DNA of 64,000 nt from Spirochaetia bacterium (lineage in GTDB: Bacteria > Spirochaetota > Spirochaetia > CADAEX01): the NCBI GenBank assembly GCA_963662795.1, contig OY759746.1, forward strand, positions 2,560,001-2,624,000, given 5' to 3'. The notes under the pieces were generated by a model. That model did no database searches, was not told the DNA's origin, and saw only the letters and a list, made by a program, of their open reading frames with translations. Positions 1 to 44,576 of this stretch are shown in pieces. Positions within the stretch are counted from its first letter, which is position 1, and the number at the start of each line of letters is the position of its first letter. A program made the translations under genes and the position numbers.

Positions 1-1266
1 AAAATCATTATCAAGAGGAATCAGGGCTGTTTTTATTCCCACAGATTCAAGCGCGGCTGCGAAAAGTATTCCAAGATCATCATAATCCCCAAGCTTGTAG
101 GAAAGTGTCTGGAATGGATATTGTATATAGTCAAGCAGTGCCGGGTCTTTGTGGAAAACTGTGTAGGGGGTTGTGTCATCTTTGGATGTGGTAATGCCGC
201 CTGTATTAAGCCCCTCAAGCAGATACATGGCAAACTGCATGTTCCGGTTAAGGCCGCTTCGCAGATTGTTCCTCGCTATTCCCACAATATATTTTGAATA
301 ATCCATTACTTCAGGTGAATTGGGTGAAATGAATGAGGCAAGGACATCTGTACTGGTCCACCTGACCGAGTTTCGGTTATACACCGGGATAACCAGCGTT
401 TGAAATGCAGTGCGTTCTGCTCCAAGAAGTTCGTATTTTATAACCAGTTCGCCCGGAATCATCCCGTTTTCCGTGAAGTTCTGTATGGTCTCCATAAAGT
501 CGGCATAAAGCGGTATTTTTGCTGTTTCCTTCTTTTTTAGTAACTCTTTTGTACCGCAGGCCATGAGGGAAGAGGTATAGTTTTCAGCCCTGAAACTTAC
601 AGATACATTGCGTATTTCGGCGGATTCATTATTGACGATTTCAATCGTACCTATTTTGTTGGTTTTATACATGCTGTAAAGGAGAGGGAATACCGGTTCC
701 TGTTGTTCAAGTGTTACTCCCACATTTCCGGCTGCTGTATCTGTGTCAAATGAAAGCCTGGCCGAGAGACCTAAAACTATTCCGGTATACATCGGCTCCT
801 GTGAAGCAGTAAAATTTATATATCCTGCCCCGGCAGAGAAAACCAGGGTGGGGGACATCCTGAACCCTGCTTCCCCATATAATTTCCACCAGAGATCGCT
901 GTATGAAAGTTCGTTGTATGTGAACTGGTACAAACCTCCGGACACGCCGAACAGCAGGGCAAGCCTCGAAAGCGGATAGGAAAACACGCTTGCATTAATC
1001 CCTGCTGAAGTGAAATTGGGATATGTTCCGGTATTTAACAGAGGAGTCACATAATAGCTGAATTCAGGACCAAAAGCCAGAAGGTCGAATAACTGTACAT
1101 CGGTGTTCAGGCATACTCCGCCGCCGGGCGAAAAATATCGGGTTGTCTCATCGCCGACAGGAAAAATTGCGGTCGGGGTTGCTTTTATGTCAAAATCCAA
1201 TGAATATATTTCGCCTGCTGACAGAAGCAGCAGAAAAAAACATAGAACACTGCCTGATAACTTCAC
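1..1266 (-). CDS. Secreted/outer-membrane protein, partial (runs off window start): signal peptide, beta-strand-rich region, Ig-like segment, transglutaminase-like domain
   Basis: Not in the ORF track because there is no stop in the window. Manual translation from GTG at 1266 (SD AAGAGG upstream) is open to position 1: MKLSGSVLCFFLLLLSAGEIYS...DYIQYPFQTLSYKLGDYDDLGILFAAALESVGIKTALIP, resembling the spirochaete 'D.VQ.P..TL....GDCDD' family. Confidence 0.8.
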   Translation of the reverse strand, partial: MKLSGSVLCFFLLLLSAGEIYSLDFDIKATPTAIFPVGDETTRYFSPGGGVCLNTDVQLFDLLAFGPEFSYYVTPLLNTGTYPNFTSAGINASVFSYPLSRLALLFGVSGGLYQFTYNELSYSDLWWKLYGEAGFRMSPTLVFSAGAGYINFTASQEPMYTGIVLGLSARLSFDTDTAAGNVGVTLEQQEPVFPLLYSMYKTNKIGTIEIVNNESAEIRNVSVSFRAENYTSSLMACGTKELLKKKETAKIPLYADFMETIQNFTENGMIPGELVIKYELLGAERTAFQTLVIPVYNRNSVRWTSTDVLASFISPNSPEVMDYSKYIVGIARNNLRSGLNRNMQFAMYLLEGLNTGGITTSKDDTTPYTVFHKDPALLDYIQYPFQTLSYKLGDYDDLGILFAAALESVGIKTALIPLDNDF

Positions 1267-6337: not shown

Positions 6338-7417
6338 ATGAAAAAATTAGAGGAATGTACTATTCTGGTTGTTGACGACAGTATTCACAACCTTGATATC
6401 ATGGTAAGCATGCTTGACACTATTTATGATGTGATTGTCGCTTCAGACGGAGAAAGCGCACTTGAGCTTGTAAATGAAATTATACCGGACCTTATCCTCC
6501 TTGATATCGTAATGGAAGGGATAGACGGATTTGAGGTCTGCAGAAGGCTCAAGAATAACAGTAGAACATCAGCAATACCTGTGATATTTTTGTCAGGCAA
6601 CAAGGATGCTTCTGACAAAAACAAAGGGTTTGAGTCCGGGGCTGTTGATTATATAACCAAACCATTTGAGGTTAACGAAGTCAAGGCAAGAATAAAAACA
6701 CATCTCTCCTTAAAGATTGCCCAGGAAGAGCTTAAAATCCAGAATGCCAAGCTTGAATCCGAGGTTGAAAAAAGAACATTTGAACTGCGGAAAACTGTTC
6801 TTGAACTAAGATATTCTTATCAGGAAACAATATTTCTCCTGTCAAAAGCGGCTGAATACAGGGATGATGATACAGGCAGCCACCTTTTAAAGGTAAGCAG
6901 CTACTGCAGAGCTATTGCAGAAGCGATGGGCATGGATGAAAGCATGGTAGAAAATCTGTATCATGCTTCATTGCTTCATGATATTGGTAAAATTGGAATT
7001 CCCGACAGCATTCTCCTTAAAAAAGGAGCTTATGATTCTGATGAATGGAATAAAATGAAAAAACATACCGAGATAGGTTCCTATATATTATCGAGTTCAA
7101 ATGTTGAAGTAATAAAAATGGGCAAAATGATAGCGCTTACTCATCATGAAAAATGGGACGGTACAGGCTATCCCAATGGGCTAAGCTATGAGGAGATTCC
7201 TTTAATAAGCAGGATTGTGTCTGTCGCAGATGTATTTGACGCACTTGTATCAAAGAGAGTTTACAAGGATGAATTTACTGTTGAAGACGCGCTTAATGAA
7301 ATAAAAAAAAGCAGCGGACGCCATTTTGACCCAAAAATTGTAGATACATTTCTTTCTATTGTTGATGATATACTTGAGATAATGAATAAATATAAAGAAA
7401 GTCACGCTGCAGTTTGA
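6338..7417 (+). CDS. Response regulator with REC and HD-GYP c-di-GMP phosphodiesterase domains (RpfG family)
   Basis: REC motifs VVDD, LLDIVM, KP; intact HDIGK and HHEKWDGTGYP. Confidence 0.93.
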   Translation: MKKLEECTILVVDDSIHNLDIMVSMLDTIYDVIVASDGESALELVNEIIPDLILLDIVMEGIDGFEVCRRLKNNSRTSAIPVIFLSGNKDASDKNKGFESGAVDYITKPFEVNEVKARIKTHLSLKIAQEELKIQNAKLESEVEKRTFELRKTVLELRYSYQETIFLLSKAAEYRDDDTGSHLLKVSSYCRAIAEAMGMDESMVENLYHASLLHDIGKIGIPDSILLKKGAYDSDEWNKMKKHTEIGSYILSSSNVEVIKMGKMIALTHHEKWDGTGYPNGLSYEEIPLISRIVSVADVFDALVSKRVYKDEFTVEDALNEIKKSSGRHFDPKIVDTFLSIVDDILEIMNKYKESHAAV

Positions 7418-22930: not shown

Positions 22931-23019
22931 GTATTTAATATCCTACCGGTATCATGGAATAAAACTCCTCTCCAATATATAATGCTCAATATATAATGTT
23001 CAATTCAGGAGAAAATACC

Positions 23020-24489
23020 ATGGCTTTGGCCGACTTGCAGGATTTTATAAAAAAGCTTGATGAAAAAGGGGAACTTGTCCGCATCAGGACATCTGTCTCT
23101 CCTGAACTTGAAATAACCGAGATCGCGGACCGGGTAATGAAAAAAAAAGGACCAGCTCTCCTCTTTGAAAATGTCAAAGGTTCTGATTATCCTCTTTTTA
23201 TAAACGGTTTCGGATCATCCGTACGGATGGCTATTGCGCTGGGGTTTTCCTCTCCTGATGATGTAGCCGCAGAGATCGGAGATATTATTGATCTTTCAGG
23301 ATATGCAACCCTCATTGATAAAATCAAGGCGGTACCGCGTCTTGCCCGTCTTGCCATGGCCTTCCCCGTTACAAAGGGCAGGGGAGCATGTCAGGAAATA
23401 GTTGAGGAGTGCGATTTATCATCACTTCCGGTACTGAAATGCTGGCCAGGCGACAGCGGCAGATTTATAACACTTCCGGTTGTAATTACCCGTGATCCTG
23501 AAACCGGCATGCAGAACATGGGTATGTACAGAATGCAGGTTCTTGATAATACAAGTACTGCAATGCACTGGCATCTGCACAAAGACGGCAGAAGAATCTA
23601 TGAAAAATATAAAAAAATCGGCGGAAAAATGCCGGTTTCTGTTGCCATAGGCTGTGATCCTGCTGTAATTTATGCAGCAACAGCGCCTCTTCCTGAATTT
23701 GTGGATGAGGCATTGTTTGCCGGTTTTATCAGAAAAGCGCCGCTGTCAATGGTAAAATCCCTGGAGAGTGATATCCTGGTTCCTGCCTCATCTGAATTTG
23801 TTCTTGAGGGATTTATTGATATTGATGAGGCACCTGTTCTTGAAGGACCGTTCGGGGACCATACAGGTTATTATTCCCTGGCTGATTACTATCCGGTTTT
23901 TCATATTACAAAGCTCACAAGGAAAAAACATCCTGTTTACCCGGCGACAATAGTCGGCAGACCTCCAATGGAAGACTGTTTTATCGGAAAAGCGACTGAG
24001 AGGATTTTTCTTCCGCTGCTGAGAATGCAGTGTCCTGAAATTATGGATATTGATTTCCCGCTCGAAGGGGTTTTTCATAACTGCGTAATTATTTCAATTG
24101 ACAAAAAATATCCCGGCCAGGCCTTTAAGGTAATGAATAATCTCTGGGGGCTTGGGCAGATGATGTATACAAAAATGATAGTAATTGTGGACAGAGATAT
24201 TTCTCCCCATGATTATTCTGCTGTTACATGGAAAGTCTTCAACAATATTGACTGGGGGAGGGATATAATTATTTCAAGGGGGCCGCTTGATGCGCTTGAC
24301 CACTCATCCCCGTATCCCCATTTCGGAAACAGGATAGGGATTGACGCCACAGTCAAACGGCCTGAGGAAGGGCATCCGAGACCGTGGCCTGATGAGATAA
24401 TAATGAATGATGAAATAAAGAATCTGGTTACTTCAAAATGGACAGAATACGGTCTCGATACTGACAGGGAATCACCGGAGAAAGGATAA
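23020..24489 (+). CDS. ubiD: UbiD-family decarboxylase, menaquinone (futalosine/MqnL, SCO4490) type
   Basis: EGPFGDHTGYY, GRPPMED, WGLGQMM, GPLDALDH. ATG 23020 follows SD AGGAG. Confidence 0.9.
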   Translation: MALADLQDFIKKLDEKGELVRIRTSVSPELEITEIADRVMKKKGPALLFENVKGSDYPLFINGFGSSVRMAIALGFSSPDDVAAEIGDIIDLSGYATLIDKIKAVPRLARLAMAFPVTKGRGACQEIVEECDLSSLPVLKCWPGDSGRFITLPVVITRDPETGMQNMGMYRMQVLDNTSTAMHWHLHKDGRRIYEKYKKIGGKMPVSVAIGCDPAVIYAATAPLPEFVDEALFAGFIRKAPLSMVKSLESDILVPASSEFVLEGFIDIDEAPVLEGPFGDHTGYYSLADYYPVFHITKLTRKKHPVYPATIVGRPPMEDCFIGKATERIFLPLLRMQCPEIMDIDFPLEGVFHNCVIISIDKKYPGQAFKVMNNLWGLGQMMYTKMIVIVDRDISPHDYSAVTWKVFNNIDWGRDIIISRGPLDALDHSSPYPHFGNRIGIDATVKRPEEGHPRPWPDEIIMNDEIKNLVTSKWTEYGLDTDRESPEKG

Positions 24490-25391
24490 TGAGAGATTCC
24501 ACTATCATGAACACTTTAAAGGGCAGCTTTAAAAAAATTACTGCTTACAGTTCTCTTGTTATGTTTTCACACTCGATATTCTCCGCGTCCTTCGCAGTAG
24601 CGGCGTCTTTTTTTGCTTCGCGCGGTATTCCCGGTTTAATTAATTTTATCTGGATTATGACTGCTTTTTTCGGGGCCAGGAATTTTGCGAATGCCGTAAA
24701 CCGTATTGTAGACAGAAAGATAGATGCGGAGAATCCCAGAACCTCATCGCGTCATATCCCTTCCGGTGAGATATCGGTCAGGGAAGCTTTATCTGTTTCT
24801 GTTTTTTTCTTTGCTGTTTTTATACTGGGAGCCGCAATGCTTCCTCCAATATGTCTTATCATGACTCCGCTGGCCGGTGCCCTTATGATTCTTTATTCCT
24901 ATACAAAGCGTTTTACATGGATGTGTCATTTTTTTCTGGGGGCAGCCTGTGCGTGCGCATCTGCCGGAGGTTGGCTTGGCGTAACAGGGGTTTTCCAATG
25001 GCAGATGTTTCCCCTTGTTTTTGCCAACGGCGCATGGGTCGCCGGATTTGACATAATTTATTCAATTCAGGATGAAAGCCATGACAGGAAAGTAAATCTT
25101 TATTCCATTCCTGCGAAGTTTGGCGTAAAAACAGCTTACTGGCTTGCAGTACTGCTTCATATATTCACGATTGTCATGCTGATTCTTGAAGGATTTATAA
25201 TGAAAAGCGGAATAATTTATTATTCAGGAATTGCCGTTATCGGCTTTCTGTTTGTTTTTCAGCATCTGCATACAATTATTACTTCTTTCAGCAGGGTCAA
25301 TTTTGCGGCCTATACGGTAAGCAGGATAGTTGGAATTGTATTGCTGATTGCAGTGATGGCTGATGCATATTCAGGATGGAGCGGGTTATGA
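24489..25391 (+). CDS. ubiA: UbiA-like prenyltransferase (MqnP type)
   Basis: NRIVDRKIDAENPRT, YSYTKRFT, FDIIYSIQD. Confidence 0.9.
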   Translation: MRDSTIMNTLKGSFKKITAYSSLVMFSHSIFSASFAVAASFFASRGIPGLINFIWIMTAFFGARNFANAVNRIVDRKIDAENPRTSSRHIPSGEISVREALSVSVFFFAVFILGAAMLPPICLIMTPLAGALMILYSYTKRFTWMCHFFLGAACACASAGGWLGVTGVFQWQMFPLVFANGAWVAGFDIIYSIQDESHDRKVNLYSIPAKFGVKTAYWLAVLLHIFTIVMLILEGFIMKSGIIYYSGIAVIGFLFVFQHLHTIITSFSRVNFAAYTVSRIVGIVLLIAVMADAYSGWSGL

Positions 25392-25987
25392 AAAGAATTA
25401 TTGTCGCAGTAACAGGGGCAAGCGGAAGCATATACGCGGTAAAGCTTATAGAAGCCCTTATTCAGTTTGATATTGATGTTCACCTGGTTTTCTCAGATAC
25501 TGCGAAAAAAGTTATGTTATATGAAATAAAAGAAAGCTTTTTGGATATGGCAGGGAAGCTTGATAAGCGCATCCGAAGCGATAATCTGCCAGGCCGGATA
25601 ATTTATCATGAAAACAGCGATATGTTCTCTTCCATTGCAAGCGGATCTTTCAGGACGGAGGGGATGATAATTATCCCCTGCACAATGGCCTGCGCCGGAA
25701 GAATCGCCTCCTGCAGCGGCAGTACTCTTATTGAAAGGACTGCTGATGTCTGCCTGAAAGAAAAGCGGGCGCTTGTTCTTGCTGTAAGAGAAACTCCTCT
25801 TAACCTCGTTCATCTTAAAAATCTCACCGCGCTCTGTGAAGCCGGTGCTGTTATTTATCCTGTAATGCCCTCTTTTTACAATAAGCCTGAAACTATAGAT
25901 GAACTTGCGGAAAACTTCTCTTCAAGAATTCTTGAATCATTCGGAATTTTAACGAAAAACTATAAGGAATGGAATGAAAATGAATAG
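25388..25987 (+). CDS. ubiX: Flavin prenyltransferase
   Basis: TGASG, IASGS, ADVCLKEKR, RETP, FY..P. Confidence 0.93.
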   Translation: MKRIIVAVTGASGSIYAVKLIEALIQFDIDVHLVFSDTAKKVMLYEIKESFLDMAGKLDKRIRSDNLPGRIIYHENSDMFSSIASGSFRTEGMIIIPCTMACAGRIASCSGSTLIERTADVCLKEKRALVLAVRETPLNLVHLKNLTALCEAGAVIYPVMPSFYNKPETIDELAENFSSRILESFGILTKNYKEWNENE

Positions 25988-32145: not shown

Positions 32146-33404
32146 ATGTTCAATCCCCGATAATCGATACCTGAGAAAAGTTGTTTTTTTTTATCTTGCT
32201 TGCCGCCATAGCTATGCCTTCTGTTGCTGATGAATTGCAGGATCGCATAGATAAGGCTTTTTCAGCAGGAAATACGGAAGAAATAAAAGTTGTTATTGCT
32301 GAGAAAAGCACTCAAGAGGGATTTGAAAAAGTAGAATCATACCTTGTTGAAAATGTAAAAAAATCAATAATAGCGGGAAATTACAGTTTTGCCGGTAATG
32401 TTCTTGACCAGATTCTTCTTAATAACCTTGATAATGTAGAGGCCCAGGATCTTTATATTTCGCTTGAGAAAGTGAAGAAGGAAAAAAGGCTAATTGAAGA
32501 AAAGAAGCTTGCCGAGGAGGCGGGAAAGCGCGAGGAAGAGCGGCTTGCTGAAGAGAAAAGACTTGCCGAGGAAGAGAGAAAGCGCGAGGAAGAGAGGATA
32601 AAACAGGAAGAAGAGCAGAAAATACTCGCAGAAGAGCAGAGGCTTCTTGAAGAACAGCGTATAAAAGAGGAAAACGATCGTCTTAAAGAGATTGCGAAGG
32701 CACTTGAGGAAGAGAAAAATACTGCCGCTGAAAAGGCGGTTTCGGAATATATCCGGACTGAGAACGATAAGGGTTATTTTACTTTTAAGGGAGAACTGGG
32801 CGCCATTGACCTGATTCTTTACAGATCGGGATTTTTCAGCGATGTATATGATAAAGACAAGACAAGCTACAGATACGGATTATCGCTGGGCGGATCAGTG
32901 TTCTATTACAAAGCCGGTTATTCCGGCGGCCTTGATCTTTCCGCTGAATCATACTTTCTTGAAATATATCCGGAAAGCGCGTCGGTTTTTTCATGGAAAA
33001 TAGCCGCAAACAGCGAATTCCTTGCCACAGATCTGCCGGTTTATGCAAGGCTCGGCCTGACACAGACAAAATATAACTATCCTTCGGATGTCGGGGAAGA
33101 CATATATATCGCATCACTTATTTCCCCGATTTTAGGAATAGGACTTAGGGACTATCAGCTTACTGACAGATTTTATTTAAGCGGAATTTTTGATTTTTAT
33201 CTTGTAAGTTTCATGACATCTTATTTTGACGGCGCATTTGACAGTCAGTTAGGTCTTAAGTATGACCTGTCTGATTATAAAAAATATGACTTTTATGTGA
33301 AAAGCAACCTGAGTGGAACTTTTGTTCTTGGTGATAACAAAATTGAAAATAACCTGAAGCTTCAGATTATTGCAGGGGCGGGGATCAACTATGGCAAAAA
33401 GTAA
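32146..33404 (+). CDS. Predicted outer-membrane protein: helical N-domain, ER/K-rich helical spacer, C-terminal beta-barrel; 5' end possibly frameshifted
   Basis: ORF 32181-33404 has a signal-peptide h-region, an E/K/R-rich tract and alternating aromatic beta strands ending AGINYGKK. The signal n-region appears in other frames from ATG 32146. Confidence 0.65.
32490..32597 (+). repeat. Imperfect 54-nt (18-aa) tandem repeat in the ER/K segment
   Basis: CTTGCCGAGGA at 32508 and 32562; AAAGCGCGAGGAAGAG at 32525 and 32579. Confidence 0.8.
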
Positions 33405-35029
33405 CAGATTTATACTGATTTTTTTGGCAGTTTCTGCATTACTGTACGGACAGGATATATATACGAAATATCTTGATGAGGCCAGGGCGTTTTACCTCAT
33501 CAAGGATTATGACAAGGCTTTATCACGCATACAGTTTGTACTTAAAAGCCATGACAGTTTTGCAGTACTTCCTGAAGAAGAGAAGACGCTTTCTGAAAAT
33601 ATTTATTATTCTTACCTTAAAAGGGCTTTCAGATAATAACAGCAATGATAAATTCAGCGCTTTTGCTACTGGTAACCCGTATTTTAAGCAAATTGCTGCT
33701 GCTTCCCCCAGGATTAATGAACTTAAGCAGAAAAACGATGAGTTTATGGCTGCTGTTAAGCGAGAGGAAGAGCTAAAACGGGCAATGGCAGAGGAAAAGA
33801 GAAAGACACAGGAACTCGAGGAACTTAAAAGGGCTGCGGATGAAAAACTGCGCACAGAAACAGCACGCCTTGAGGAAGAGCGGAGAAAGGAGCTTGACAG
33901 GATAGCAGAGGCGCAGAGGAAGGAAATGGAGAGGATTGCCTAGGAGCGGAAAATTGAAAGCGAAAGACTGCTTGCCGAGAGAAAACGGGAAACAGAGAGA
34001 GTCCTTGAAGCAGAAGCAGCCAGAAGAAAGCAGGATGAAGCTGCAAAAAAGGCTGAACAGGAAAATTTCATGAAATTCCAGGAGCAGATAGTAAAGGAAA
34101 GAGCTGAGGCGGAAAATACTTCCAATGAACAGATTAATACAGTTATGCAGTCTTTTATAACGATGAGGGACAAGGAGTCTCAGGGGAATCTGCGGATAGT
34201 CATTATTGTTACTATAGTAATCGGCGCGATTTTTATTGCGATGCTTGCCGCTGTAATAATTCTCTTCCTTATTTCATACCGTAATTCACGCAGGCAGCAG
34301 GAAACATTCATGAAGTATGCAGAGATGGCGCCAGTCCGCTCATACGATGCCCTTCCTTCTCCTGTCATGAGCGATGTTGCTGACGCGGTATACAGGATTG
34401 AGGACAGGACCTCCTCCGGTGAGCATGGTGAAAGCACATCCAGGGCGCTGCCTTCTCCTGAAGATCATGACAAGGAAAAACTCAGAATTATTGTTGAACA
34501 GCGCAAGGCCTTCGGAGACGCGATAGACAGCGCTACCCACAGGAAAAACTGCTCAAAAAACGCGGCTGAGCTTGTCTACAAGATTTCAGCGCTGCTGGGA
34601 CGTCCTACAAGGGAATCGATGATCTATTATGCTGTCGGACTTATTTATGATATAGGATTTTTAAGCACAGACCCTACGCTGCTTGATTCACCCAGACTTA
34701 CTGACGAGCAGTTTGAAATGCTTAAAAAACACGCAACATCAGGGCTTGACATGATCCATTTTGTTGATAAGGAATAGAAGGAGATTTTTATTGATGGTAT
34801 TACAAAGCACCATGAAAACATGGATGGCAGCGGCTATCCTGAAAACCTCAAGGCAAAGGATATCCCTTTTATAGCAAGAGTTATAAGGGTTGTTGACAGT
34901 TACGTGTCTCTGATATCCCAGCGCGCTTACCGCGATATTTATGACAAGGAGACTGCCTTTAAAAAACTCATGGAAGATAAAGGTGTTTATGATGAAAAAA
35001 TACTGGAGGCATTGTCAAACGTAATATGA
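33391..35029 (+). pseudogene. Disrupted membrane-anchored HD-GYP-like protein (signal, TPR-like, ER/K spacer, TM helix, degenerate HD-GYP)
   Basis: Four ORF fragments join into one ~545-aa reading by removing one A at ~33619-33622 and reading through TAG 33941-33943 and TAG 34775-34777. HHENMDGSGYP lies just after the second TAG, partly upstream of the ORF-track start. Confidence 0.8.
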
Positions 35030-36080
35030 AAAAAACAACAGTTGAAATAAAAATAATATTTGCCCTTGCGGCGGTAATTGCCGCATCCGGCTGTTCAATA
35101 GCTGATGATATGCTGGGTGTAAATGAGGCTATTCTCAGCGACAGGGTAGCCCTTCTATTTCTGTTATTGAGGGAATAAGTTATGCATTTATTGATGAGGA
35201 TAATACGCTGCAGCTGCAGGTAAGCAATCCGGAAAGCGGTTATAAATATTACTGGGAAACTACAGGAGGGACAATTGACGGAGAAGGAGAAACTGCCACA
35301 TATACCGCAGTTGTAAGGTGCTACGGATCAAAGGATGAATATGTCGAGACAAAAACTGCTGAGAAAACAATACACAATATCGAAATTCTCACCGACAATA
35401 TGCTCTGGCTAAAAGCTGATTCAATAACAGAGCTTAACTCGTTTGATGCTGTCGCATCCTGGACCGATTCAGGTACAGTGGGGAATGTCCTCTCGCAGGC
35501 TACAGAGACAAACAAACCCAAGTATGTCGCAGACAGCCTTACTGGAAGGCCGGTAGTGAGGTTTGTAGACAATACAGATTCCCTTTATAACACCGCGCTG
35601 ACAACCGGCTCAGGATTCGGAATAGCGCAGTCTCAAATATCTTTTTTTATTGTATTCAGGATAAACAGTTATATCGCGGCAAGCTATATCTTGGGAGCGC
35701 GGAACGGCGGAACAAATTCATTTCCGGTTTTATATCACCTGGCGCCAGGGCAGCAACTCAGGGTTTACCAGTATACAGCGTATAACGCGGCTCCTTTTCC
35801 GGTCCTTTATGGTGAGACAAAACTGATGAGCTCAGTCTGCGATATGACACAGGCGGTAGTAGCGGACAAACTGAAAATATGGCTCAACGGTGCGGAGCAG
35901 GTTGACAATATCAATGTCGCTGCGACAAATCCTACCATAACAAGGCTTTATCTTGCTGCTCTCACCTCAAACAACAGTTTCATTGGTGATATAGCGGAAG
36001 TGCTTTATTTTAACACCGCCCTTTCTGATGAAAGAAGAGAGCAGATTGAAAACTACCTGTCAGAAAAATGGGGTCTTTAA
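35026..36080 (+). pseudogene. Frameshifted lipoprotein with Ig-like and LamG/concanavalin-A-like domains
   Basis: ATG 35026 (ATGA overlap) encodes MKKTTVEIKIIFALAAVIAASG-C, then stops at ~35178. Another frame is open from ~35127 through 36080 (LWLKAD...W.DSG...GDIAEVLYFN.ALS...IENYLSEKWG). Confidence 0.75.
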
Positions 36081-37456: not shown

Positions 37457-38230
37457 TTATGAGATACCAGCGATAGACTCTTTTTTCCTGCAGGGGAAAA
37501 TATCAAGAAGCTCTGTAAGGGTATCAACAACAGCATCAGGCTGCCTTAGATGCCCTTTATCTTCAGGATCATAAGCTTCTGTTTTTAAAAGTATAACACC
37601 TGCAAAACCAGATTTTCGAGGGCCTTCAACATCACGGTTGGGCTGATCTCCGATATAGACGCATTTTTCAGGAGCTATCTCTGCTTTTTCACAGCCTATC
37701 CTGAATATCTCCGGATTTGGTTTTTTAATTCTGACTTCTGCAGACATGATAACTACTTCAAAATCATCCAGAATATCCACAGCTTTAAGTTCTGCCGGGA
37801 GCATCGTAGGGCTGACTGTATTGCTGATCAGTCCGACTCTGTAGCCTCTTTTTTTAAGCTCCTTTACTACAGGTGCCGCATCAGGATACATTACCCTGTT
37901 GCCTTTAGCATGCGCATTCATTATGACAAGCTTGTCAGCGTTTTTTTCAATCCTGTCAAAGTGAGGTGCATCATAAAAAAGCCATTTTTTGCACATATCT
38001 TCGACTGTCTCTTCATAACAGTTTGTAAAACTCCAGTCCTTCAATTTTTTATCACGTTCTTTTAATAATTTTCTGAATTCTTTCGGGTCACCTTCATAAC
38101 CCAGAAAATCCATAATCTCTTTTGCTTTTGCAACACCATCATCAGCATGTTTCTGATTAGTGTTGAGTGTTCCGCCTTTATCGAAAAAGATAAAATCAAT
38201 TTTTGTTGAATCAAAATGTCCGCGAATCAT
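37457..38230 (-). CDS. HAD-superfamily hydrolase
   Basis: FFDKGGTL, ISN, KKP.PEIF, YIGD...D..G. Confidence 0.9.
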   Translation of the reverse strand: MIRGHFDSTKIDFIFFDKGGTLNTNQKHADDGVAKAKEIMDFLGYEGDPKEFRKLLKERDKKLKDWSFTNCYEETVEDMCKKWLFYDAPHFDRIEKNADKLVIMNAHAKGNRVMYPDAAPVVKELKKRGYRVGLISNTVSPTMLPAELKAVDILDDFEVVIMSAEVRIKKPNPEIFRIGCEKAEIAPEKCVYIGDQPNRDVEGPRKSGFAGVILLKTEAYDPEDKGHLRQPDAVVDTLTELLDIFPCRKKESIAGIS

Positions 38231-43066: not shown

Positions 43067-43104
43067 GAATCAACATTATAACATATTAAAAATATTCTCA
43101 AGCA

Positions 43105-44576
43105 TCAGAAGCCGGCCCCAAGAACCTTTCTTATTACTGACAGCAGATCCTTTAATGCGTATGGTTTTGAAATGACCTCTGATGCTCCCTTAAGTAGTAA
43201 TCCTTTTTCAGGCAGATTGCTGGAATAACCGCTTGCAATGATAATTTTTAAATCAGGAGAAGCGGCAATCAGCTTTTTCAGGCTTTTCTGCCCCCCATAC
43301 CGGGCATGTTAATATCAGGTACAGCAATATCTATCGCTTTTACCAGTTTATTTAAGATTTCAATTGCTTCTTCACCCGATTCAGCCTGGATAACATTATA
43401 TCCGTAATGAGTCAGACTAATGTTCATGAAATCAAGAATCGCTTTATTATCATCAACAATCATCACCGTTTCTCTGCCGGCTGTAATTTTTCTGTCAATA
43501 ATATTCTGCTTGGTTTTTTTATTGATAATGTCTTCTTCGGATGCCGGAAAAAAGAGATGGAAGACTGTTCCGCTGTCCGGAGAACTGTCGCATGTCAGAA
43601 ATCCTCCGTGGCTTTTTACAATTCCATAAACGGTTGAAAATCCCAGCCCTGTTCCTTTCCCGGTTTCTTTTGTTGTAAAGAACGGGTCATAAATCTTTCC
43701 TGAAATACTGCTGTCAATTCCGCATCCTGTATCTGAAATATCAAGAAAAGTGTATTTTCTGCAGGGTATCAGTCTGTTCTCGGAGAAAAACTTCTCCTTA
43801 ATATCTTCAGGACCGGTTTCAATCCTGAGTAATCCGCCGTCAGGCATCGCATCAGATGCCTTGCTGCACAAATTAAGGATAATCTAGCGGTTCTGCTTTT
43901 ACAGGGTAAACATTATTATCAAGCCTGGTTTCAATTTTTATCATTTTGGGAATCGTTCTCTCAATTATTTTAAGCGAATGATTGACCGAGACATTGATGT
44001 TTGATGTTATCTTGACAGATTCCGTTTTTCTGCTGAATAAACGCATCTGTTTGACAAGCCTTGCCGCGCATTCTGCAAGGACCTGATTTTCTGTTATATC
44101 GATTACCGGATCTTTATCATAAAATGTTCCGGTATAATTTTTTAAAGTGTTTGACGCCATGCGTGCAGTTTGATTTTCCGCTGGGCTTCATCCAGCAGGT
44201 GATAAAATGACGTGGTGCTTTCTGTTTGTGCTTCCAGTTCATCAAGAACTTTCATCAGCGACTCGTGCAGTTTATGGGAATATGAATAGTCATTAAGCTT
44301 TATTTTTAAGAGCAGCAGCTGTTCTTCTGTTTTCTCCATTTTAATATCCCTTAGAATTACAAGAACCTCCCGCCTTCCGCTGACAACCATCCTTGATTCA
44401 AACCATTTTAAATCATCTTTGATTCTTATTCTGAATTCGAAACTCTGCGATTCTCCCGATTTAAGGGCTTCCGTTACTTTCTCCATTGTCAGTAATGCAG
44501 TTTCCGCCGGGAAAATATCTGCTATGCTTTTTTCGATAAAATCCGCTCTGGACATGAAAAATACAGTTTTCAGCAC
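43105..44576 (-). pseudogene. Decayed PAS/GAF hybrid sensor histidine kinase
   Basis: Fragments in different frames: PAS/GAF start, partial linker, HATPase (DTGCGI, PFFTTK..GKGTGLG) and a REC domain split at the C6 run near 43291, with tail IIIASGY...KPY ending at 43105. No HisKA H-box found. Confidence 0.85.

Follow-up and report, generated by a model that had tools for sequence, protein, structure and literature searches.

A conserved spirochaete gene pair encoding a predicted outer-membrane beta-barrel and an inner-membrane protein with a degenerate HD-GYP domain

Organization of the locus

The stretch of DNA analysed here, referred to as the window, comprises 64,000 nucleotides of a Spirochaetia bacterium genome (assembly GCA_963662795.1, contig OY759746.1, positions 2,560,001 to 2,624,000). 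It carries three overlapping genes, A, B and C, as stated in the preliminary description of this region; all are on the plus strand, between positions 32171 and 36080. Genes A and B represent a real, conserved and apparently undescribed module, in which a predicted outer-membrane beta-barrel protein is encoded next to an inner-membrane protein with a long periplasmic stalk and a degenerate HD-GYP domain. The copy in the window is very probably a recent pseudogene, a state that the preliminary description had missed.

Lesions were called against a sister species (locus L001, JACKPD010000007.1), which is 89% identical to the window at nucleotide level and has identical gene order. Its orthologs of A, B and C are whole (410, 545 and 358 aa, respectively); A (410 aa) and B are also whole in locus L002, where C is cut by the contig end. 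In the window, all three genes are broken, A included. Gene A (32171-33404) has CTG at position 32171, where both L001 and L002 have ATG, and an additional nucleotide near 32184 shifts the frame at codon 5, leaving an open reading frame at 32181-33404; ATG at 32146 is not the start of this gene. Gene B (33391-35029) contains one extra nucleotide near 33619 and stop codons at 33941 and 34775. Gene C (35026-36080) lacks one nucleotide near 35151 and has an in-frame 21-nt deletion near 35308. In sum, the start codon of A is lost, the frame is shifted three times, two nonsense codons have arisen and 21 nt are deleted. Fourteen flanking genes are free of frameshifts and stops, a broken histidine kinase near 43100-44500 being excluded from this count.

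These lesions might be assembly errors, with the operon intact in the organism. Each of the three single-base indels is located within or next to a short homopolymer run, the ratio of nonsynonymous to synonymous substitution rates (dN/dS) of the operon is not raised (0.07-0.13), and replacements on the window branch are not in excess (34 N/85 S vs 23 N/87 S, p 0.22). However, three of the lesions are substitutions (the start codon and both stops) and a fourth is the 21-nt deletion; moreover, five frameshifts and stops fall within 1313 of 6108 codons, while none is found in the 4795 flanking codons (chance ~5e-4). Assembly error is for these reasons unlikely. Since dN/dS is not raised and replacements are not in excess, inactivation of the operon is recent.

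Promoter-like sites do not exceed chance level. Terminator-like sites are more numerous than expected (9 vs 3.8), none of them following gene C.

Conservation of the A-B pair

The analysis covers 78 loci out of 123 relatives of B found in a genome scan, with 43 weaker matches left out; 77 of the 78 records are titled Spirochaetota. Homologs of A were sought in the fetched flanks of B (10 kb or less). In 70 of the 78 loci, the gene immediately before B is a barrel-bearing A (68 by profile, two by eye at contig edges), and the two genes usually overlap. Three further loci (L036, L052 and L057) retain little more than the N-terminal domain of A, and the remaining five have no A in the fetched flanks. 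The first pass had placed A directly upstream of B in 69 loci, including these three, and had missed it in four: L066 (whole), L065 (contig edge), and L004 and L014 (by eye, contig edges).

Adjacency of A and B spans Treponemataceae, Spirochaetaceae and Brevinematales, while flanking genes vary. The module is found in the cultured, non-pathogenic Treponema bryantii and Brucepastera parasyntrophica; T. pallidum and T. denticola have no record among the 78 loci, from which the 43 weaker of the 123 matches had been left out. In T. pallidum, TP0764, TP0877 or TP0912 might conceivably correspond to B. Members of the B family fall into two well-supported clades in a quick tree. The neighbours scanned include no conserved gene for a cytoplasmic partner. 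It is very likely that A and B form a conserved functional pair. Conservation of the order A-B-C across Spirochaetota had been suggested as a check; the order is conserved for A and B, but only 11 of 78 loci have a C-like gene after B, so that C is not a fixed member of the operon.

Predicted architecture of A and B

Structure models were made on the intact L001 orthologs of both proteins, and signal peptides were judged by eye. The AlphaFold2 model of A, based on 62 sequences, has a mean predicted local distance difference test score (pLDDT) of 88 and a predicted template modelling score (pTM) of 0.53. It consists of four short helices, a continuous helix of 90 residues, a low-confidence linker and ten strands, in agreement with the helical N-terminal domain and C-terminal strand region noticed before. 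The periplasmic N-domain (about residues 21-88; 32232-32435, plus strand, as are all features of A and B) is the most conserved part of A, its mean pairwise identity being 0.39 and that of the barrel 0.28, and its structural matches are generic tetratricopeptide repeat (TPR) or helical-repeat proteins only (Z <=9.6). The E/K/R-rich single helix (residues 89-178; 32436-32705) is expanded in this lineage.

The C-terminal part of A (residues 202-407; 32775-33392) is modelled as an amphipathic beta-barrel with ten DSSP strands. It matches pOmpT (7xw0) with Z 18.9 (rmsd 3.1, 191 aligned residues) and OpcA with Z 16.4, whereas soluble ten-stranded barrels of nitrobindin type match less well (Z <=12.7). 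Hydrophobic and polar columns alternate in most strands, family-wide. A barrel that is even-stranded, closed, amphipathic and preceded by a signal peptide predicts an outer-membrane location for A, as the preliminary description had suggested. Sequence searches with A gave no Pfam match (E <=0.1), no NCBIfam family reaching its cut-off and nothing significant in the Protein Data Bank (PDB). A profile search retrieved 253 clusters at 50% identity (E <=0.001), another in a word-indexed database gave just three proteins, none of them named, and top look-alikes in the ESM Atlas are Spirochaetota clusters.

The model of B contains a helical tip (about residues 22-117), a continuous helix of 135 residues (106-240), then one hydrophobic helix and, beyond a flexible linker, the HD-GYP domain. 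Its periplasmic part, tip and stalk, is modelled as all-helical, mostly with pLDDT >90, and has no Cache match. The stalk (about residues 118-265; 33743-34187) is E/K/R-rich and amphipathic; in L001 it measures 151 aa and shows hydrophobic periodicity with z 4.4. It is followed by a single transmembrane helix (34196-34270; Kyte-Doolittle 21-residue mean 3.2), a conserved cytoplasmic linker (0.35 identity) and the degenerate HD-GYP domain (34463-35026). This architecture agrees with that first described for B, except that the motif of the terminal domain reads YD instead of HD. An ESM Atlas search with residues 1-360 of B gave no usable match.

Spacers and joint loss of stalk and barrel

Spacers were compared in 65 of the 69 pairs, four with truncated A being dropped. 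The A spacer is 115 aa long in L001 and 73-77 aa in 57 of the 65 family members. In L001, tracts of ER/K type (at least 55% E/K/R over a sliding 20 aa) have a length of 67 aa for A and 46 aa for B. A length of at least 50 aa is found in 5/65 A, 3/65 B and only 2/65 pairs; ER/K tracts exist, but they do not form the "matching ER/K spacers" proposed earlier. E/K/R content of A and B correlates (rho 0.58), for which kinship can account. Amphipathic, coiled-coil-like periodicity occurs in 35 of 65 B stalks, while hydrophobic helical periodicity is absent from the A helix (0/64 sequences). As judged from sequence periodicity, the B stalk is thus probably a coiled coil, opposite which A has a single helix, and the description of ER/K single alpha-helices as rulers fits the A helix of this lineage alone. 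The ER/K tracts are not built on any notable tandem repeat, one row of 1.9 copies aside.

Stalk length differs according to the presence of the barrel. In all 68 scored loci with barrel-bearing A, the B stalk measures 58-192 aa (median 90), and in the two edge loci of this kind 154 and 136 aa. Among the eight loci without A or its barrel, six have a stalk of 14-47 aa with the tip kept, and the other two have no detectable tip. The difference (Mann-Whitney p 5.5e-5) is not corrected for kinship; up to five separate events can be placed on the tree. This co-loss supports a bridge from membrane to membrane.

In L036, L052 and L057, A is cut to little more than its signal peptide and N-domain, and the tip of B lies 14-16 aa from the membrane. 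L052 and L057 keep only the N-domain, while L036 keeps the N-domain and a short piece of the helix. Retention of the A N-domain before a stalk-less B is expected if the two N-domains are partners. These loci (L052:9187-10783, L057:9025-10621, L036:9029-11002) represent natural minimal pairs, with A of 119 aa in two of them. Taking 0.15 nm for each residue, the median stalk (90 aa) and an A helix of about 50 aa would together span ~20 nm, to which two small domains are added. This is the right order for the periplasm; 25 nm was taken as upper measuring range in a Leptospira study, according to the part of it available (PMC13547282). Co-loss of stalk and barrel (8/8 loci) speaks for the earlier idea that arms of A and B bridge the periplasm, while matched rulers are not found.

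The HD-GYP domain of B

The domain carries the pattern RKN..YDIGF..H..HHENxDGxGYP..RxY[RK]. An intact relative matches HD_5 with E 2e-21, and the modelled fold superimposes on PA4781 (4R8Z; Z 22.3, rmsd 2.3, 187 aligned residues) and PmGH (4MCW; Z 22.2). DvhD (9RBZ) is the top Foldseek match, with 23% identity, and ties for top Z (22.2-22.3).

Active-site residues were counted in 88 B-family sequences, 78 from the loci and 10 from databases, so that one locus is represented twice; the controls were two canonical HD-GYP neighbours, kept out of the count. The HD motif reads Tyr-Asp in 87 sequences and His-Asp in one. The upstream, first metal His is present in none (0/88), the residue following HD is Phe instead of Lys in all 88, and the distal Asp is replaced by Glu in 83. 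On the contrary, all 88 sequences retain HD-Asp, the other three His (second site), GYP and the Arg that binds guanine, although presence of the HHExxDGxGYP motif and second-site His in all 88 was partly selected by the KHHEN search pattern. The last position of RxY[K/R] is occupied by R in 61, K in 19 and H in 8 sequences, hence by K or R in 80 of 88. The family also has invariant C, RKN, F and F/D residues of its own, including new, near-invariant R384-K385-N386, whose basic residues (R384 in 88/88, K385 in 84/88) stand next to the second metal site. Assignment of the His and Asp ligands to two metal sites is presumed here. The YD result is not merely a search artefact, because 43 of 88 sequences read YDAGF, unmatched by the YDIGF pattern, and the 11 matches not selected by pattern all read YD. 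The sole member with HDIGF (L020:10001-11473) comes from a Brevinematales genome, and its upstream metal His is absent as well.

Judged by these residues, one metal site is lost, and the nucleotide pocket appears to be kept. Roles of HD-GYP residues E185, Y285, R314 and K317, including guanine binding, are described in the available part of a survey of this domain (bioRxiv 10.1101/2021.11.05.467447). Since guanine-binding and GYP residues are retained and the first metal site is lost, B is likely to be a receptor of cyclic di-GMP (c-di-GMP) rather than a phosphodiesterase, and probably a catalytically inactive one. Hydrolysis, which had been named as one possible activity of the domain, is in its ordinary form unlikely for B, two of the four first-site ligands being lost in nearly all members.

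The flow of information could also be the reverse: A would read surface contact, a ligand or the state of the outer membrane and pull on B, much as FecR-type proteins are acted upon by TonB-dependent transducers, and B would answer in the cytoplasm, through partner binding or through slow phosphodiesterase activity with one metal. Adjacency of A and B and co-loss of stalk and barrel fit this equally. The second metal site together with R384 and K385 could support altered catalysis, the fold of A matches the adhesin OpcA, and the cytoplasmic linker of B is conserved. Nevertheless, such an outside-in sensor is unlikely, given the loss of first-site ligands. HD-GYP activity typically needs two metals, as stated in the available part of the same survey (bioRxiv 10.1101/2021.11.05.467447), and PA2572, with a YN-GYP signature, was reported inactive (PMC3774798, seen in part). 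Besides, no conserved cytoplasmic partner gene accompanies the pair among the scanned neighbours.

Gene C and neighbouring genes of the immunoglobulin type

Gene C encodes a protein with a lipobox-like Cys and with immunoglobulin (Ig)-like and laminin G (LamG)-like domains. The view of C as a lipoprotein of this composition is strengthened by the lipobox-like Cys and by Laminin_G_3 in four of seven aligned family members (best E 1e-22), whereas Pfam matches of the window copy itself are weak (Laminin_G_3 E 0.047, Ig_7 E 0.061). PDB sequence search with C returned nothing significant. Several C-like lipoproteins (window 35092-35130; L001, L002, L006, L011) share a short motif, D-x-x-G-[VL]-N, after the lipidated Cys, possibly a sorting or export signal.

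C-like genes belong to a 16-row clade of B that includes the window orthologs. Here 11 loci have a C-like Ig/LamG lipoprotein gene after B, two lie on contigs that stop behind B, and three have neither A nor C. In much of the other B clade, a Big_7 repeat protein of ~2000 residues is encoded before A. Of the 69 A-B loci scored, 56 have an Ig-type gene on the same strand, no more than four genes away. In L030 (2515-8505) and ~40 other loci, Big_7 repeat proteins of ~2000 aa, with a barrel-like C-terminus ending in Phe (by eye), stand directly upstream of A. In Big_7 loci, genes for a DUF4015 glycoside-hydrolase-like protein and for an MnmE-like GTPase (the latter named by eye) often come after B.

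Such neighbours raise the possibility that A serves the adjacent Ig-fold lipoprotein or giant protein as exporter or anchor, in a Slam-like role, with B as a gate or tether controlled by c-di-GMP. In the 16-row clade, all loci with barrel-bearing A and enough downstream sequence (11/11) have a C-like lipoprotein next, the three loci without A are also without C, A, B and C decayed together in the window, and several conserved Gly occupy non-lipid-facing positions of the barrel. A ten-stranded barrel is nevertheless narrow compared to Slam (14 strands) and autotransporters (12 strands). The Big_7 giant appears, by eye, to end in a barrel of its own, and it persists where the A barrel is lost (L036, L052, L057). 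This role of A is accordingly quite improbable.

A possible bridge between the two membranes

The computed architecture, adjacency, motif degeneracy, lesions and joint loss of stalk and barrel are the ground for the following model, in which we infer contact, ligand, direction and output. B would be a single-pass inner-membrane protein, probably dimeric through its HD-GYP domain and coiled-coil-like stalk, and the stalk would carry a TPR-like tip into the periplasm. A would be a ten-stranded outer-membrane barrel from which a TPR-like domain hangs inwards on a single helix, and the two tips may dock. The HD-GYP domain would most likely bind c-di-GMP without turnover; binding would shift the B dimer and send a signal outwards, as in DvhD and LapD, but directly to the outer-membrane barrel and not to a protease. 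The likeliest output, and the weakest step, would be that the Ig-fold surface protein of the neighbouring gene is displayed or anchored. We assign the whole chain, from inner-membrane c-di-GMP receptor through tip contact and outer-membrane barrel to an outward signal and control of an Ig-type protein, a probability of roughly 0.4. Regarding its parts, direct contact of A and B is likely, while the chance of adhesin output falls somewhat short of even.

Several observations weigh against this model. Spacer lengths of A and B, which had been expected to covary, do not do so among intact pairs (rho -0.12, p 0.36, n=65), and a B stalk varying three-fold opposite a nearly fixed A spacer is awkward for a ruler. 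Outer-membrane barrels usually end in a C-terminal aromatic residue, and A has none. The second metal site of B is intact (Asp and three His), unlike in DvhD, so that residual catalysis is possible. Some of the loci without A sit on long branches (L049, L068, L073), and short stalks could reflect general decay. In 32 loci, with MnmE distances allowed for, the correlation of A with the Big_7 giant (partial r 0.72) is as good as that with the periplasmic part of B (0.67); tree similarity therefore does not single out B as the partner of A. Finally, 13 of 69 A-B loci have no Ig-type neighbour, and the link to adhesins amounts to about two independent associations, C-like genes being confined to one clade and the Big_7 giant to part of the other.

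Two computational tests of A-B contact speak neither for nor against it. Complex prediction with A(22-168) and B(24-198) of L018 scored 0.00 in two runs, in which controls were not folded either, and mutual information between paired A and B N-domain columns had an effective depth of 21, with control pairs scoring as high or higher. The N-domains of A and B may share ancestry: profiles of the two proteins match over residues 1-118 (hhalign 94.6%), although this span includes both signal peptides.

Lack of length covariation and the unspecific tree similarity would also suit a situation in which A and B are co-expressed in one pathway and never touch, each reaching a third partner such as peptidoglycan or the periplasmic part of an adhesin. 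This does not readily explain why the B stalk collapses upon loss of A or its barrel, nor why the A N-domain is kept before a stalk-less B, and we hold it to be about as improbable as an exporter function of A.

If the bridge is real, it would be a new means by which spirochaetes of gut and sludge couple a second messenger to their outer membrane and to surface attachment. C-di-GMP could then tighten or release a tether between inner and outer membrane, or switch adhesin display, in diderms whose outer membrane is loosely attached. Run in reverse, the same device would report membrane spacing to the cytoplasm. The natural deletion variants point to the likely A-B interface.

Other features of the window

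A canonical REC-HD-GYP protein of RpfG type with intact HD and GYP motifs is encoded at 6338-7417 (plus strand), which makes c-di-GMP turnover in the organism probable. The broken gene at 43115-44475 (minus strand) encodes a hybrid PAS histidine kinase; its L001 copy is intact (576 aa), and the N-terminal part of the window copy no longer aligns. A HAD hydrolase gene at 37457-38230 (minus strand) has dS 2.9 relative to L001, against about 0.2-0.8 for its neighbours, which suggests allele replacement. UbiD-like, UbiA-like and UbiX-like genes (named by eye) stand in a row at 22996-25987 (plus strand) and are conserved in L001 and L002. At 1-1266 (minus strand), the window edge cuts a gene for a secreted protein whose N-terminal part resembles, by eye, a small beta-barrel.

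Comparison with known systems

Few c-di-GMP receptors are known in spirochaetes, and a degenerate HD-GYP domain acting as transmembrane switch has been shown only recently, for DvhD. The B family is restricted to its phylum, strictly keeps a distinct rewrite of the active site and has a fixed outer-membrane partner. No title or abstract opening in the literature searched, which leaves most subscription papers outside, describes the A-B pair. The architecture of B was not found in the available part of the HD-GYP survey (bioRxiv 10.1101/2021.11.05.467447), nor was a description of the pair seen in the accessible parts of two surveys of spirochaete outer-membrane proteins (PMC13749626, with 12 of its 15 supplements; bioRxiv 10.1101/2025.01.03.631275), whose barrels were not compared with A by sequence.

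Some known proteins resemble only one partner. A shares its ten-stranded amphipathic barrel with OmpT/Pla and OpcA, yet identity is <=10%, no Pfam family matches, and the N-terminal helical domain and helix are additional. An omptin protease was considered and rejected for A: there is no Pfam match at E <=0.1, no omptin among PDB sequence matches at E <=1, and no His conserved in at least 75% of sequences. The available part of the T. pallidum survey (PMC13749626) lists TP0292, annotated as OmpA family (five loops), and TP0923, a PEGA protein matching OmpT. These are set beside A by description, as ten-stranded amphipathic barrels, and not by sequence. B has the fold, HHExxDGxGYP and RxY[K/R] of canonical HD-GYP phosphodiesterases (PmGH 4MCW, PA4781 4R8Z, RpfG type) and departs from them in YD for HD, in the absent first metal His and in invariant residues of its own.

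Action of an outer-membrane component on an inner-membrane signalling protein across the periplasm is known from FecA-FecR-FecI, and YfiBNR ties such action to c-di-GMP. TonB-dependent cell-surface signalling employs a plugged 22-strand receptor, a FecR-like anti-sigma factor and an extracytoplasmic function (ECF) sigma factor. The likeness of A-B to both systems lies in this general scheme. In contrast to FecA-FecR-FecI, the barrel has 10 strands and not 22 with a plug, the output domain is HD-GYP, and no sigma or anti-sigma factor was detected among scanned neighbours; compared to YfiBNR, the module includes no OmpA-type lipoprotein and no diguanylate cyclase.

The closest parallels are DvhD/DvhG of Desulfovibrio and LapD/LapG of Pseudomonas, in which, as in B, an inner-membrane protein combines a degenerate cytoplasmic c-di-GMP domain with a periplasmic output domain, and large surface proteins are encoded nearby (PMC13090378, available part). 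DvhD is described there as a non-catalytic HD-GYP receptor that binds c-di-GMP and switches conformation, both metal sites being lost through changes of HD to SQ and HH to MN (PMC13090378). B differs from DvhD in keeping one metal site, and from both systems in its signal peptide, single transmembrane helix, TPR-like tip and long stalk, with no LapD/MoxY or dCache/PAS domain. Neither a LapG/DvhG protease nor type I secretion was found among 89 of 93 neighbour-cluster representatives (at least 120 aa, within three genes) and 14 further proteins, four clusters having been named by eye; instead, the constant neighbour of B is an outer-membrane barrel. It is possible, if on balance doubtful, that spirochaetes possess a c-di-GMP device of their own: a one-metal HD-GYP receptor would be linked mechanically to an outer-membrane barrel by its coiled-coil stalk and a TPR-TPR clasp, and neither a protease nor a secretion system would intervene. 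The A-B pair is neither an omptin nor a TonB-dependent transducer nor a canonical HD-GYP enzyme, and its logic is like that of Lap and Dvh, from which its periplasmic domain sets it apart.

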